DNA of 61,942 nucleotides, the filler included. It is 6 parts of 6 records of this genome, joined end to end, with 100 filler letters (N's around TTAATTAATTAA, not from the genome) between each part and the next. Parts side by side here need not be neighbours in the genome. Positions count along the whole stretch, not along the records: positions 53,460 to 61,942 come from SRR31156797_15057; 5 more parts are not named here. One strand, 5' to 3'. Below the pieces are notes generated by a model. The model was given only the letters and a program-made list of their open reading frames with translations, was not told where the DNA came from and ran no database searches. Below, piece after piece: positions 55,449 to 61,757 of the stretch (position 1 is the first letter of the stretch; each line of letters opens with the position of its first letter). A program made the translations under genes and the position numbers.

Positions 55449-56373
55449 ATCTGACGAACCGGCGGCATTTGAAAAACGCAAACCCCACCTGTTGTTACGG
55501 GCACGGATTTTTCAGAGCGTTCGGGAATTTTTCATTACCCGCGGATACCTGGAAATAGAAACGCCCCAGCTTATTTCCGCACCCGCCCCGGAAACCCACA
55601 TCGAATCCATCGCCATCCGGGACCGCTATCTGCAAACATCGCCGGAACTGTGCATGAAACGGTTGCTGGCCCTGGGTTTTCCGAAAATTTTTCAAATTGC
55701 CAGGTGTTTCAGGGATGGGGAAAGGGGTGAGTTGCACCTCCCCGAATTTTCCCTTCTGGAATGGTACCGGACAGGGATTGACTATGGTTCCCTCATGGAA
55801 GAGTGCGAAGCCCTGTTCCTCTTTTTATCCCAACGGCTTGATATGGGGACCCGAACCCGCTGCCGGGGTGTACATATTGATCTTTGTGCACCCTGGGAAA
55901 AGCTTTCGGTCCAAACCGCATTTGAGCGATATGCCTCCGTTTCCCTGGATCAGGCCCTTGATAACAATCATTTCGACCAGACAATGGTTGAGGAAATCGA
56001 ACCGCACCTGGGGGTGAAAGCCCCCACATTTCTATATGACTACCCGGCCTCACTGGCGGCACTGGCGCGATTGAAACCTGGAAATCCCTCCATTGCGGAA
56101 CGATTCGAAATATATGTGGGGGGGATTGAACTGGCCAACGGGTTTTCAGAATTAAACGATGCCCATGAACAACGAAAACGATTCGAAAAAGAGCTCAAGG
56201 AAAGGGGTCTGCTGGGAAAGCGTGTTTCTCCCATGCCGGAACGATTTCTAAAGGCCCTTGAGAAAATGCCCGAGGCCGCCGGCATTGCATTGGGACTGGA
56301 TCGTCTGGTCATGATTTTTGGAGACGCCCGCACCATTGATGAGGTGGTTGCCTTCACACCGGAAGAGGTATAA
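55426..56373 (+). CDS. epmA: EF-P lysine aminoacylase EpmA (GenX/PoxA)
   Basis: YLQTSPELCMKRLL, CFRDGE, HLPEF, YDYPA, AERFE, ELANGFSEL, GIALGLDRL; adjacent to efp. Confidence 0.95.
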   Translation: MSHGSRNRSDEPAAFEKRKPHLLLRARIFQSVREFFITRGYLEIETPQLISAPAPETHIESIAIRDRYLQTSPELCMKRLLALGFPKIFQIARCFRDGERGELHLPEFSLLEWYRTGIDYGSLMEECEALFLFLSQRLDMGTRTRCRGVHIDLCAPWEKLSVQTAFERYASVSLDQALDNNHFDQTMVEEIEPHLGVKAPTFLYDYPASLAALARLKPGNPSIAERFEIYVGGIELANGFSELNDAHEQRKRFEKELKERGLLGKRVSPMPERFLKALEKMPEAAGIALGLDRLVMIFGDARTIDEVVAFTPEEV

Positions 56374-56384
56374 GGGGCGGTATC

Positions 56385-56431
56385 AAAAAATTGCAAGCCG
56401 ACCCCCGACTCAATCTCAGGGATCAGCTTGC
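56385..56431 (-). terminator. Intrinsic terminator, minus strand
   Basis: 16-bp stem GCAAGCUGAUCCCUGA/UCGGGGGUCGGCUUGC, fully paired on minus (3 G-U; these are 3 C-A mismatches on plus), followed by AAUUUUUU. Confidence 0.75.
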
Positions 56432-56493
56432 GGATTTGGAAGGGGGCAAACGATATTTTAAGGAGGCCATGCCAAGTCTCGTGCCCGTATGTC
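56385..56493 (-). ncRNA. Candidate sigma54-dependent small RNA (~110 nt)
   Basis: Bounded by a minus-strand -24/-12 promoter (56519-56504) and a minus-strand-specific terminator; contains CCUCCUU and CCCCCUUCC tracts; no complete ORF within it. Confidence 0.6.
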
Positions 56494-56503
56494 AAAATGT
56501 ACC

Positions 56504-56519
56504 AGCAAAATTCATGCCG
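56504..56519 (-). promoter_or_regulatory. sigma54 -24/-12 promoter (leftward)
   Basis: CGGCAT-GAATT-TTGCT on the minus strand. Confidence 0.65.
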
Positions 56520-56652: not shown

Positions 56653-56666
56653 TTAACATGTGTTAA
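56653..56666. promoter_or_regulatory. Putative enhancer (bEBP UAS) TTAACA-TG-TGTTAA
   Basis: Palindrome about 110 nt from the rightward and about 135 nt from the leftward sigma54 promoter; recurs at 59140. Confidence 0.7.
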
Positions 56667-56776: not shown

Positions 56777-56792
56777 CGGCATTATTTTTGCA
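56777..56792 (+). promoter_or_regulatory. sigma54 -24/-12 promoter of the DsrEFH-like operon
   Basis: CGGCAT-TATTT-TTGCA, about 90 nt upstream of ATG 56882. Confidence 0.7.
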
Positions 56793-56881: not shown

Positions 56882-57190
56882 ATGACAAAAAAATTGGGAG
56901 TTTTTGTGAGTTCCGATCAACATTTGGACAAACTCATCAAATTATGTAAGGCCGCACAAGAGAAGGGCGACGTTGATGTGACCCTCTTTTTCAGCCATCT
57001 GGGCACCAAGTTGACCCAGGACCCCAGGTTTGGGGAACTTGAGGGGATGGCCACCATGAGCCTGTGCAATGTGGGCTTTGAAAGCCACGGCCTGAAACCG
57101 CCGGTCCAGGGCATCGCGAAAGAGGATTTTGCCACCCAGGCCAGGAATGGGGAATTGATCGAAGAGGGCGACCGTTATCTTGTTTTCTAG
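56882..57190 (+). CDS. DsrE-like sulfur relay protein
   Basis: KLGVFVSS...VTLFFSHLG...SLCNVG...DRYLVF DsrE-fold pattern with conserved Cys; AGGAG SD. Confidence 0.75.
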   Translation: MTKKLGVFVSSDQHLDKLIKLCKAAQEKGDVDVTLFFSHLGTKLTQDPRFGELEGMATMSLCNVGFESHGLKPPVQGIAKEDFATQARNGELIEEGDRYLVF

Positions 57191-57208
57191 GAAAAAGGGG
57201 TTATAAAA

Positions 57209-57502
57209 ATGGAAAATGTTCAGCATGTGGCGTTTTTGGTGCGCCGAAAAGAAGACCTCTGGGAAGGATCACGATCCACTCTGGGGCTGGCCGTTGAAAA
57301 TATTTATTCCTATATGTTCGTTTTGGACATCGAAGTGGATATGTCCGAAAAGTACAAAGAGAATCTGGAGTGGCTGGAAGATATGGAATGTGAATACTAT
57401 TCCAACAATAAAGTCAATGCGGATAAACACGGCTTTCAGTATCTGAGCCTGGAAGAGATTGGCCAAAAACTTAAAACAATGGACCTGATCGTCCCCTTTT
57501 AG
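57209..57502 (+). CDS. DsrF-like conserved hypothetical protein
   Basis: HVAFLVR...EGSRSTLGL...MDLIVPF, a DsrE/F-fold pattern; co-oriented and tightly spaced. Confidence 0.65.
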
Positions 57503-57513
57503 GAGCATCTACC

Positions 57514-57693
57514 ATGAAAATTCTGCACATATATAAAACAGAACCCGACGAAACCACCAGAACCCTGGCGAAAATCGTTTCCGAAGGGAAGGAAATATCC
57601 GAATTTTCCCTGTACCAGGGAGAACCGGACTACGGAAAGCTGATCGATTTGATCTTTGAACATGATCACGACAAAGTGATCAGTTGGTGGTAA
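57514..57693 (+). CDS. DsrH/TusB-like small protein (59 aa; absent from ORF track)
   Basis: AGGAG SD; MKILHIYKTEPDETTRTLAKIVSEGKEISEFSLYQGEPDYGKLIDLIFEHDHDKVISWW*. The MKILH start and DYxxLIDLI...VISW end resemble DsrH/TusB. Confidence 0.75.
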   Translation: MKILHIYKTEPDETTRTLAKIVSEGKEISEFSLYQGEPDYGKLIDLIFEHDHDKVISWW

Positions 57694-57705: not shown

Positions 57706-59091
57706 CTATCCGCGAATGGTCCGGTTCACCTGAATATCGTAATCCTTGAGGCGCTTCCAAAGGGTTACCCGGCTGATTCCTAAAACCTTGGCAGCTTCGG
57801 TTTTATTTCCACCGGTTTTTTTCAGGGCCGCCAGAATGGTTTCTTTTGCTTCCGAACTTTCCAGGCCACCTTTTTTCGGGCGTTTAGGCGAGGGATATGT
57901 GCCTTTTCCGGTAATGCCGGGGGGAAGATGTTTCTGCTGAATCTCGTCACCCGGACAAATCACAAAGGCATATTCAATGGCATTGATCAGTTCACGGATG
58001 TTGCCGGGCCAGCTGTAATTCACCAGGGCTTCCAGGGCCGCTTCATCCATCCCGGTAATATTTTTTCGGCTTTTAAGCCGGATTCGGCTGATAAAGGTCT
58101 CAATGAGCAGCGGGATGTCTTCGGGTCGTTCCCTGAGGGGCGGCAAATAGATGGGGATGACGCCCACGCGATAGTATAGGTCCTCGCGAAAACGCCCTTC
58201 TTTCATGAGAATCTTAAGATCTTGGTTGGTGGCCGTAATAAACCGGACATCAATGGAAAGGGGCTTGTGGTCCCCCACCTTTTCGATCTCCTTTTCCTGC
58301 AGCACCCGCAGCAGTTTCACCTGGGTGGAGAGGGGAATATCCCCGATTTCATCCAGAAAGATGTCGCCCCCGCCGGCCGCCTCGAAACGCCCTTTGCGAT
58401 TGCGGTCCGCACCGGTAAAGGCCCCTTTCACATGACCGAACAGTTCGCTTTCCAGAAGGGATTCGTTTAACGCCGCGCAATTCACCTTCACAAAAGGGCC
58501 TTCGGAACGGCTGCCCAGCCGATGTATGGCCGTTGCCGCCAGTTCCTTGCCGGTGCCGCTTTCGCCGTAAATGGCAACGGGGGCATCTGAATCGGCCGCA
58601 CTTCCAATGAGGTCAAACACCTGTTGCATGGCGGCGGACTTACCGATAATCCCCTCAAAACTCTCCTCAATGCTGAGTTCATGACGGAGTGTGGTGATAA
58701 CCCGGTCCCGATCCACCAATTCCGTGCAATCGGCCAGATTTTCCACGCCGCCCACCACCACGCCGTCCTTGTCTTTTAAAACTGCGGCATTCTTGAGCAC
58801 ATGGACCGGGGACCCGTCTTTTCGTTTAAAAATACACCGCTTGTGGCGTACCTGTTCTTTATTGAACAGTTCGCAGTGTTTGACACCGCCACGGGCCCTG
58901 GAACGAAAACAGGTGTTGCACTCCAGTATTTCGCAGGACCGGCCGATCAGTTCCTTTTCCGTATAGCCCGTAAGTGTTTCAAACGCGTTATTCACCGAAA
59001 TGATAATGCCGTCGGGATCCACCACCATGAGCCCGTCCAGCATGGTTTGCACCACGGTCTTCCAGTACTGACTGTATTCATTTTCAAACAC
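57706..59091 (-). CDS. sigma54-dependent enhancer-binding protein (PAS-AAA+-Fis HTH)
   Basis: Cys-rich PAS, GESGTGKE, ESELFGHVKGAFTGA, FLDEIGD, WPGNIREL, NKTEAAKVLGISRVTLWKRL. Confidence 0.96.
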   Translation of the reverse strand: MFENEYSQYWKTVVQTMLDGLMVVDPDGIIISVNNAFETLTGYTEKELIGRSCEILECNTCFRSRARGGVKHCELFNKEQVRHKRCIFKRKDGSPVHVLKNAAVLKDKDGVVVGGVENLADCTELVDRDRVITTLRHELSIEESFEGIIGKSAAMQQVFDLIGSAADSDAPVAIYGESGTGKELAATAIHRLGSRSEGPFVKVNCAALNESLLESELFGHVKGAFTGADRNRKGRFEAAGGGDIFLDEIGDIPLSTQVKLLRVLQEKEIEKVGDHKPLSIDVRFITATNQDLKILMKEGRFREDLYYRVGVIPIYLPPLRERPEDIPLLIETFISRIRLKSRKNITGMDEAALEALVNYSWPGNIRELINAIEYAFVICPGDEIQQKHLPPGITGKGTYPSPKRPKKGGLESSEAKETILAALKKTGGNKTEAAKVLGISRVTLWKRLKDYDIQVNRTIRG

Positions 59092-59139: not shown

Positions 59140-59153
59140 TTAACATATGTTAA
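59140..59153. promoter_or_regulatory. Putative enhancer (bEBP UAS) TTAACA-TA-TGTTAA
   Basis: Perfect 14-bp palindrome 93 nt upstream of the -24 element, with extra GTTAA half-sites nearby (59121-59134). Confidence 0.75.
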
Positions 59154-59245: not shown

Positions 59246-59261
59246 TGGCACTGCATTTGCA
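59246..59261 (+). promoter_or_regulatory. sigma54 -24/-12 promoter of the tusA-tusA-dsrE-rhodanese operon
   Basis: TGGCAC-TGCAT-TTGCA, a perfect consensus. Confidence 0.85.
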
Positions 59262-60440: not shown

Positions 60441-61757
60441 ATGAAAAAGATAAAGCGGGTACCGGCCTTAACAGTTTTAACGGCGGTATTATTCGCCTTT
60501 TCCCTGATGTTTATGGGTCAGACCTTTGCCGCTGAAAAAGGCGGGGACCTGAAAGTCAAGGGACAGGTAAAAGCGGTCTCCAACAAAGCCAAGACCCTTT
60601 CCATTAATGTGAAGGGCAAGGGTCAGATGCTGTTTAAATTCAACGACAATACGAAATTTATCAACTTTACGAAAACAAAAGAAATCAAATACCCTACCGC
60701 CGTGGTGGTCAAATACAAAATCGAAGGGCCTGACAATGTGGCGCAATCCATCAAAAAAGCCCTGATTTCACTTCCCAAGGGCGTCAGCGAAATCAAAACC
60801 GATGAAGTGGCGGCACTGGTGGCGCAGGGACCCGAAGCGGGCAACTATTTTCTGGTTGACGCCAGACCCGCCACTGTCTCCTCCGCCTCCCATATCCCCA
60901 CCGCCGTCTCCATTCCCGTTCCGGTGTTGAAGAAGAAAGGAAAGGAGCTGCTGCCGGCGGACAAAAGCAAGCTGCTTATCTTTTATTGCGGGGGCCCCAC
61001 ATGAGGCATGAGTCCTAAATCCGCCGGTCTGGCGAAAAAATGGGGCTACGAAAATGTGAAAGTCTATGTGCAGGGGATTCCCGGCTGGAAAAAAACAGGT
61101 TACCACACCGTTTCCACATCCGATTACGTGAGAACCGGCAACATTGTATTGATTGATTTGAGAGCACCTGCTGCTGTAACCGCCGGGCATATTCCCAGGG
61201 CCGTGGCTATTCCCGCCGGACAACTTGAAGGGTCACAGGATCAGTTTCCCGAATCCCTCACCGCACCCATCGTCTTTTACTCCGATAACATTGAGGAGGC
61301 CAAGGAAGCCGTGAAAAAAGCCCGAAGCTGGCGTTATAAAAACGTGACCCTGCTGGACTTTCCCGGCATCATTACCTGGAAGGAAAGAGGGTATGACGTC
61401 AAAACCGGTCCCGCCGCAACGGAAATTGTTTATGTGCGTAAACTGGAACCGGGACAGATCAGCATCGCCGATTTTGAAGCGGCCCTCAAATCGGAAGCCA
61501 TTACGGTGGTGGATGTTCGTGGACCGGAAGAGTACAAAGCCGGACATTTTCCGGGGGCCGTCAATATCTCCCTGGACGAACTGCCCACCCGGCTGGGCGA
61601 CATTCCCAGCAATAAGTTCGTGGTGGTCCATTGCCGAACCGGCGTTCGAGGGGAAATGGCCTATCTGCTGTTGAAAGAAAAAGGGTATGACGTGAAATAC
61701 CTGAAAGCCGGATGTCAGTGCAAAGCGGACGGCACTTACATGATCTGGGAAATGTAA
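60441..61757 (+). CDS. Secreted multi-rhodanese selenoprotein (438 aa, Sec at 61002-61004)
   Basis: ORFs 60441-61004 and 61008-61757 share one frame, joined by a single TGA in FYCGGPT-U-GMS inside rhodanese domain 1; SECIS-like hairpin follows. Signal peptide, beta-rich N-domain, three rhodanese domains (VDARP, IDLRA, VDVRG...HCRTGVR). Confidence 0.85.
61011..61047 (+). promoter_or_regulatory. Bacterial SECIS element
   Basis: Lower stem AGUCCUA/UGGGGCU, upper stem CGCC/GGCG, apical loop GGUCU starting 22 nt after the UGA; similar to the E. coli fdhF SECIS loop. Confidence 0.75.

Follow-up and report, generated by a model that had tools for sequence, protein, structure and literature searches.

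The DNA between epmA and an operon of three small genes raises the question of whether it encodes a regulatory RNA, as an earlier note on this sequence had proposed, and which mRNA such an RNA would act upon. The locus lies on an 8.5-kb contig (53460-61942) of the window, by which we mean the whole stretch of 61,942 nucleotides that was analysed and which otherwise consists of unrelated contigs strung together. The nearest relatives of the contig carry the labels Desulfatiglandales, Desulfobacteraceae or Deltaproteobacteria, and a comparison with plasmid and phage collections gave no meaningful match. The gene order is purH-like, efp, epmA, the gap that concerns us here, three small genes, a convergent gene for a PAS-sigma54 activator, two tusA genes, dsrE and a rhodanese gene. 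The following features surround the candidate RNA:

56653..56666, no strand: palindrome TTAACA-N2-TGTTAA, a probable enhancer common to the sRNA and the forward operon
56777..56792, plus strand: forward sigma54 promoter of the three-gene operon (pattern match)
56882..57693, plus strand: three small genes (102, 97 and 59 aa), probably a DsrEFH type II / YTD sulfur relay
57706..59091, minus strand: PAS-AAA-HTH sigma54 activator with five conserved PAS cysteines, the probable activator of the sRNA
59140..59153, no strand: palindrome repeated 5' of the tusA promoter (sequence match)
59246..59261, plus strand: sigma54 promoter of the tusA-tusA-dsrE genes (pattern match)

A conserved promoter-RNA-terminator unit

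Three sites in the 62-kb window match a strict sigma54 pattern, compared with 0.36 expected and a count of three in none of 100 shuffles, and all of them fall in intergenic DNA of the contig described above. The minus-strand promoter CGGCAT-N5-TTGCT, from which the earlier note had predicted a transcription start near 56493, was recovered at 56519-56504. The elements of the putative RNA gene are as follows:

56504..56519, minus strand: sigma54 (-24/-12) promoter of the sRNA, CGGCAT-GAATT-TTGCT (pattern match; homologs)
56385..56493, minus strand: candidate sRNA of ~109 nt, with +1 near 56493 predicted from the promoter
56469..56483, minus strand: seed CUUGGCAU, complementary to the aprB start codon and the next codons (computed pairing, 14 bp with aprB of close relatives)
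56460..56466, minus strand: anti-Shine-Dalgarno tract CCUCCUU, predicted to pair with AGGAGG of aprB (CCUCCU invariant in 31 homologs)
56444..56486, minus strand: 5' stem P1, GGGCA 56486-56482 with UGCCC 56448-56444, enclosing the seed and the anti-Shine-Dalgarno tract (absent from one or more lineages)
56385..56431, minus strand: intrinsic terminator, consisting of hairpin 56431-56393 and a U tract (fold, covariation)

The 16-bp hairpin at 56431-56393 contains three G-U pairs on the minus strand and is followed there by AA and six U; the claim that it is perfect on this strand only was borne out, with a folding z-score against shuffles of -3.75, compared with -0.81 for the plus strand. Its assignment to the RNA rather than to epmA also held, in that the terminator travels with the RNA beside other upstream genes. 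The conserved core of the sRNA is (A)CUUGGCAU-N1-4-CCUCC, the anti-Shine-Dalgarno tract costs 2.5 kcal/mol to open, and a generic C/U-rich linker follows 3' of P1. There is no conserved reading frame: a minus-strand AUG at 56470 is found in the window alone and a plus-strand ATG is lost in several homologs. Rfam 15 returned no covariance match over the sRNA locus at E<=5, nor in eight homolog loci at E<=1.

The sigma54 site, the ~109-nt RNA and the covarying terminator recur in about 63 genomes from two orders of the Desulfobacterota, namely 44 genomes of the home order and 19 of a second, and additionally in 11 metagenome stretches. The promoter-terminator pair on which the earlier proposal depended is conserved in relatives. 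Promoter, core and terminator are kept in five of the six close loci for which upstream DNA was available, two of which adjoin genes other than epmA, and the sixth close genome carries the element on another contig. A search of metagenomes by pattern gave 74 stretches, 63 of them chance matches, in none of which the scripted promoter occurs, and 11 true homologs (9 distinct), of which eight have the scripted promoter, one a variant promoter and two are incomplete. For the family, the order and the phylum, a covariance model built on the RNA only matched 29 of 105, 20 of 151 and 3 of 151 genomes, respectively. We inspected 29 weaker loci and found the core motif in 25 of them, every one with a sigma54 site (19 by the scripted pattern and six NTGC variants by eye), even though the model contained no promoter. 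A second model that included the promoter added 12 further genomes of the home order. The second order was reached through G342, the sole seed-bearing member outside the home order in two largely overlapping phylum samples of 151 genomes each; 25 of 101 of its genomes match, 19 of which are true on inspection, including four with a weak or unmatched promoter. Judged from the short AprB, this order is probably Desulfobacterales (compare the available part of PMC12998232), and the sRNA was not found in the other orders searched in the phylum samples. Four matches (L105, L124, L130 and that in G046) were dropped as false and one (G392) as doubtful.

Across 31 aligned members the invariant letters of the RNA are CU-GGC, CCUCCU and two C of P1. 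The terminator shows two-sided changes at 13 of 13 pairs, with 91% of cells paired, a level that none of 500 shuffles attained; P1 is weaker, with 70% of cells paired, or 76% in a model-fitted alignment. On this comparative evidence the unit is real as a conserved element and represents an undescribed sigma54-dependent sRNA family of two Desulfobacterota orders, and the minus-strand, sigma54-dependent RNA suggested earlier is supported, including its trans-acting character.

In four RNA runs from relatives, available as assembled contigs, the three-gene operon is covered to a summed depth of up to 1423 (run X1), whereas cover of the sRNA region is thin (0.7-4.0 in X1 and X3), negligible (<=0.06 in X2) or nil (X5). 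One X3 contig extends beyond the sRNA promoter. As such contigs carry neither strand, ends nor level, the sRNA is neither shown nor excluded by them. Thirteen metatranscriptomes contain at most 0.12 of the words.

Several genomes have two or more copies of the sRNA, some of them devoid of a sigma54 site. Second copies of the latter kind with an intact seed are found at L234, L235, L237, L240 and L265, and perhaps provide a second input on aprB; four of these copies diverge from a gene for a metY-like sulfhydrylase. In G138 a small element, bounded by terminal inverted repeats and a target-site duplication of 7-8 bases, appears to split one copy (L019:103-215 and L114:1501-1583), and an intact copy is retained 4 kb away. 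G423 (L365/L383) has two copies in tandem, and in G459 (L359) the sRNA is followed by an unrelated sigma54 hairpin RNA.

Complementarity to aprB and its covariation

The actual seed, CUUGGCAU, lies directly before CCUCCU, was overlooked in the earlier note and points to aprB. The complement of the invariant part of the RNA reads as a Shine-Dalgarno sequence followed by ATG CCA AG; AprB begins Met-Pro-Ser, and aprB was suspected on that account before the pattern search. Another candidate, dsrA, was considered on account of a product start of MAK, and was set aside once the pattern search returned aprB. Target screens were conducted as start-site patterns. In five genomes the pattern SD-gap-GCCAAGT gave 24 sites, comprising the five sRNA genes, six aprB sites (present in all five genomes, all above the TIGR02060 cut-off) and 13 others that are not gene starts (ORFs <=17 codons); the frequency of the pattern shows no excess over its reversed control. 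With the aprB start of seven close relatives, which stand in for the host's own gene located off the contig, the window sRNA is computed to form a duplex of 14+7 bp and -31.6 kcal/mol that covers the Shine-Dalgarno sequence and first codons. A looser pattern, GGAG..ATGCCRAG, has 18-27 sites per genome, among which aprB ranks 1/24, 1/18 and 3/26 scored (27 found); the two sites above it in the third genome open frames of only 11 and 31 codons, and aprB is first among real genes in all three. It was located in 23/27, 14/15 and 19/24 further genomes. By hand count, ATGCCAAGY opens about 92 of the 134 aprB matches from the phylum, mostly in genomes where the sRNA was not found or not sought. As this is the commonest aprB start, the sRNA probably exploits an older site, and since it is common where no such sRNA is known, conservation of the target alone proves nothing.

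The joint variation of both partners was followed in 54 genomes possessing both (G163, with no clear promoter, was left out), using the main-type copy where there are two aprB genes and the better-pairing RNA where there are two sRNAs. Cognate duplexes average -27.4 kcal/mol, compared with -25.6 for all combinations (residual -1.8, permutation p 5e-5). Among 27 nearest pairs, which are disjoint but not formal contrasts, the cognate combination is better in 20, worse in 4 and tied in 3 (p 0.0008). In the aprA control it is better in 11 and worse in 8 of 26 (p 0.32), with a small cognate bias by permutation (p 0.03). Compared with 336 background starts, aprB beats all in 22 genomes, lies in the top 1% in 33/54 and the top 5% in 47/54, and falls outside the top 5% in 7/54. 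Individual substitutions can also be followed. Where aprB has AGC, three RNAs carry the opposing G (G181, G394 and G400), two keep A and in four the site is relaxed. Lineage-specific matches are seen in G199, G092, G394, G400, G408, G438, G451 and the second G080 copy, which matches a CCG codon; an altered CUUGGC motif is found in G408, G451 and one G438 copy, where pairing is shifted onto the Shine-Dalgarno sequence and spacer, and G125/G126 retain an A-C mismatch. Of three exact-base predictions written beforehand, one came true (G181), one gave a G-U pair (G342) and one failed (G192). As far as such comparisons reach, the covariation is specific to aprB, not aprA, and identification of aprB as the target is a well-supported prediction.

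It is conceivable that the sRNA is instead a broad anti-Shine-Dalgarno regulator of many mRNAs, of which aprB is one, or is not the main one. CCUCC can pair with any strong Shine-Dalgarno sequence, the linker after P1 is generic, multiple copies occur in several genomes (some without a sigma54 site), and the 18-27 candidate sites per genome include real small genes starting MPRG. We nevertheless consider a broad role unlikely, given the first rank of aprB among real genes in 3/3 genomes, the covariation with aprB and not aprA, and the linkage and poorer pairing of second aprBA copies described below. Possible secondary targets are small glycine-rich genes at L307, L310, L313, L302 and L320, which start MPRG, MPRK or MPRF, have strong Shine-Dalgarno sequences and show a partial match to the seed (-20 to -25 kcal/mol).

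Regulatory setting and proposed circuit

The palindrome at 56653 lies 148-160 bp from the sRNA promoter in 9/9 loci of this arrangement and 104-224 bp from the forward promoter; in L021 only the sRNA accompanies it and in L004 only the operon. From this spacing and these two cases, the sharing of the 56653 enhancer proposed earlier is probable, the partner of the sRNA being the dsrEFH-type-II-like operon. The protein that reads the palindrome is probably the cysteine-rich PAS activator encoded next to it. A search for an IHF consensus site between enhancer and promoter found none. A sigma54 activator gene is nearby in the fetched DNA of 30/49 loci listed, and in 14/49 it ends <=45 nt from the sRNA promoter (four loci not parsed). 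The cysteine pattern of the PAS domain is C-x4-C-x2-C-x11-13-C-x12-C. One group of copies has a different upstream motif, which indicates that control was rewired at least once. In the upstream regions of L011, L019, L025, L039 and L054, where the sRNA diverges from a gene for an uncharacterised protein of 218 aa, a GTTAC/GTAAC repeat motif stands in place of the TTAAC palindrome and implies a second activator.

The three small genes have no Pfam or NCBIfam match but have DsrE-like neighbours in a protein atlas, and they fit the description of DsrEFH type II in consisting of three small genes, DsrE-like with one cysteine, near tusA. They are probably DsrEFH type II / YTD by size, tusA synteny and the description in the available part of PMC13293266. 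A second aprBA copy is present in six genomes, each with its own sigma54 site, and is divergent from the sRNA in four. The sRNA pairs worse with the second copy in 6/6 genomes; it starts ATGCCTAG in four genomes, a start seen in 0/54 main copies. Weaker pairing of a sigma54-driven second aprBA suggests an isoenzyme swap. The rpoN gene is present in 5/5 genomes, while Hfq (PF17209) was found in 0/5 compared with 5/14 controls, although the genomes may be incomplete.

We favour, with a probability of roughly three in four, a sigma54-dependent sRNA that base-pairs with the aprB start and represses aprBA translation without Hfq, and that is co-induced with the sulfur-relay genes. Its transcription, binding in vivo and repressive effect, like the identity of the activator and its signal, are what we infer from the conserved unit, its complementarity and covariation, and the gene neighbourhoods. 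The cysteine-rich PAS activator would sense a cue, probably sulfur or redox, and bind the 56653 palindrome; sigma54 polymerase would transcribe the sRNA, with both divergent promoters open. The loop of the 5' domain would then pair with aprB, the leading gene of aprBA, across its Shine-Dalgarno sequence, AUG and codons 2-4, so that ribosome loading is blocked and APS reductase lowered without the need for Hfq. The sulfur-relay genes (DsrEFH-II/TusA/DsrE) would be induced by the same activator, as would the more poorly pairing second aprBA of some genomes. The more complete picture, a dedicated Hfq-free RNA switch on sulfate respiration in Desulfobacterota, by which one activator induces the DsrEFH-II/TusA relay together with an alternative APS reductase where present and the sRNA silences the housekeeping aprBA, is tentative, and we put it at a little under even odds.

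A duplex over the Shine-Dalgarno sequence and AUG blocks initiation in well-studied sRNAs. That the predicted duplex spans both elements, and that the linked second aprBA copies have a weakened site, makes it very unlikely that the sRNA pairs with aprB to stabilise or activate it, or that aprB mRNA titrates the sRNA, although the direction of the effect is itself inferred, a close relative has a long aprB leader, and DsrEFH type II working in sulfur oxidation would require AprAB (available part of PMC13293266). In the oxidative model published there AprAB is needed, which fits awkwardly with co-induced repression of aprBA.

The earlier note had named tusA and dsrE as targets of two anti-Shine-Dalgarno seeds, which would amount to feedback within a regulon whose members share the palindrome of the activator. 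The two C-rich tracts and the 10-bp (tusA) and 11-bp (dsrE) pairings do exist at the coordinates given there, but the pairing energies are no better than chance (-21.5 kcal/mol each, where 336 other start regions, a few spurious frames among them, average -21.2). With opening costs included, aprB reaches -15.3 to -17.4 kcal/mol, tusA -10.2 and dsrE -7.9. Among five relatives the tusA pairing ranges from -13 to -23 kcal/mol, being weaker still in four, whereas aprB stays at -31 to -32, and the second tract has its 5' end within the 3' strand of P1 and varies freely in homologs. Such feedback is therefore highly improbable. Least probable of all is that no RNA gene exists, and that an epmA terminator lies beside an inactive sigma54-like site or a motif for DNA binding, or that the plus strand encodes a very short ORF: epmA does end at 56373 facing the hairpin, the plus strand does carry AAGGAGG-CC-ATG, and the 5' end does resemble a sigma54 site shifted by one base, but the hairpin is perfect on the minus strand only and travels with other upstream genes, the mini-ORF was rejected on loss of its ATG (L001, L003, L016, L030 and L069), and the promoter mimic on replacement of the promoter-like 5' end by other P1 sequences in distant homologs.

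Sulfate respiration has a major part in the carbon and sulfur cycles of the seafloor, and APS reductase catalyses one of its central steps. If the more complete picture, the dedicated RNA switch, is true, dissimilatory sulfate reduction would have its first known control after transcription, and the YTD cluster would work in a condition where the standard APS reductase is unwanted. With repression of aprBA by the sRNA, transcript counts of aprBA could overstate enzyme synthesis. The sRNA and aprB would further provide an Hfq-independent sRNA-target pair with natural compensatory variants. The role of YTD/DsrEFH type II in sulfate reducers, whether in oxidation, disproportionation or reduction of sulfur intermediates, is debated (available parts of PMC13293266 and PMC12998232), and a co-regulated RNA that shuts off aprBA would offer a direct test of it.

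Known systems and other sigma54 units

In its proposed mode of action the sRNA resembles Pxr, Qrr and RyhB, without belonging to any of these families. Qrr of Vibrio, GlmY/GlmZ and CrcZ possess a sigma54 promoter, an enhancer-binding activator and an intrinsic terminator, and depend on or titrate Hfq or other proteins; the Qrr sRNAs, present in multiple copies, act by pairing at ribosome-binding sites. The present sRNA shares promoter type, activator and terminator with them, whereas its sequence and targets are unrelated and the search for Hfq found none. RyhB depends on Hfq and is under sigma70/Fur control. The likeness that we propose lies in shutting down translation of an iron-sulfur enzyme that is abundant, with the same signal inducing an alternative isoenzyme; the control by sigma54 and the APS reductase target differ. 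In Myxococcus xanthus, a host without hfq, the sRNA Pxr is encoded immediately 3' of its activator gene pxrR/nla19 and has a sigma54 promoter and enhancer, both predicted (available part of PMC5684412), and the present sRNA similarly starts <=45 nt from the end of an activator gene in 14/49 loci. In contrast, there is no Rfam or sequence match between them, Pxr has three stem-loops and controls development, and its activator is a response regulator rather than a cysteine-rich PAS protein (PMC5684412, same part).

Two systems of Desulfovibrio vulgaris invite comparison. DseA, too, is an sRNA of a sulfate reducer that acts in trans and affects its target mRNA negatively, but it is a SAM riboswitch, has a sigma70 promoter and targets sahR, and the term 'apr' is absent from the main text of that source (bioRxiv 10.1101/803072, available part). 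OrpR is a PAS-domain sigma54 activator with conserved cysteines and divergent promoters; its cysteines are C52, C61 and C65 and its regulon consists of two orp operons, whereas the present activator has the five-cysteine pattern given above (spacing compared by description) and an sRNA output (PMC8359166, available part). The literature on APS reductase and on sRNAs of sulfate reducers that we covered, with few subscription journals, describes no sRNA acting on APS reductase, although supplementary catalogues might list the sRNA unnamed; 'apr' is also absent from the main text in the available part of PMC11124144.

Other short sigma54 sRNA-like units were encountered near the model hits. One (L244, L245, L248-L254, L183, L184, L407 and L408) has a U/C-rich tract ending CUCCU and a terminator, and often lies just 3' of an NtrC-like activator gene, convergent with an era-like GTPase gene. 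Another family (L246, L247, L255, L256, L375 and L189) has a GGAAUGAAG stem enclosing CCUCCUUU, followed by ACCUCC and a terminator. A third (L185, L186, L187, L203 and L409) carries a CCCUCCUCUCC tract, and two of its representatives follow a response-regulator gene. At the far end of the contig, the rhodanese gene (60441-61757) is split by an in-frame TGA at 61002-61004, directly after a CGGPT motif; the same junction is found in L004, and the codon probably encodes selenocysteine.
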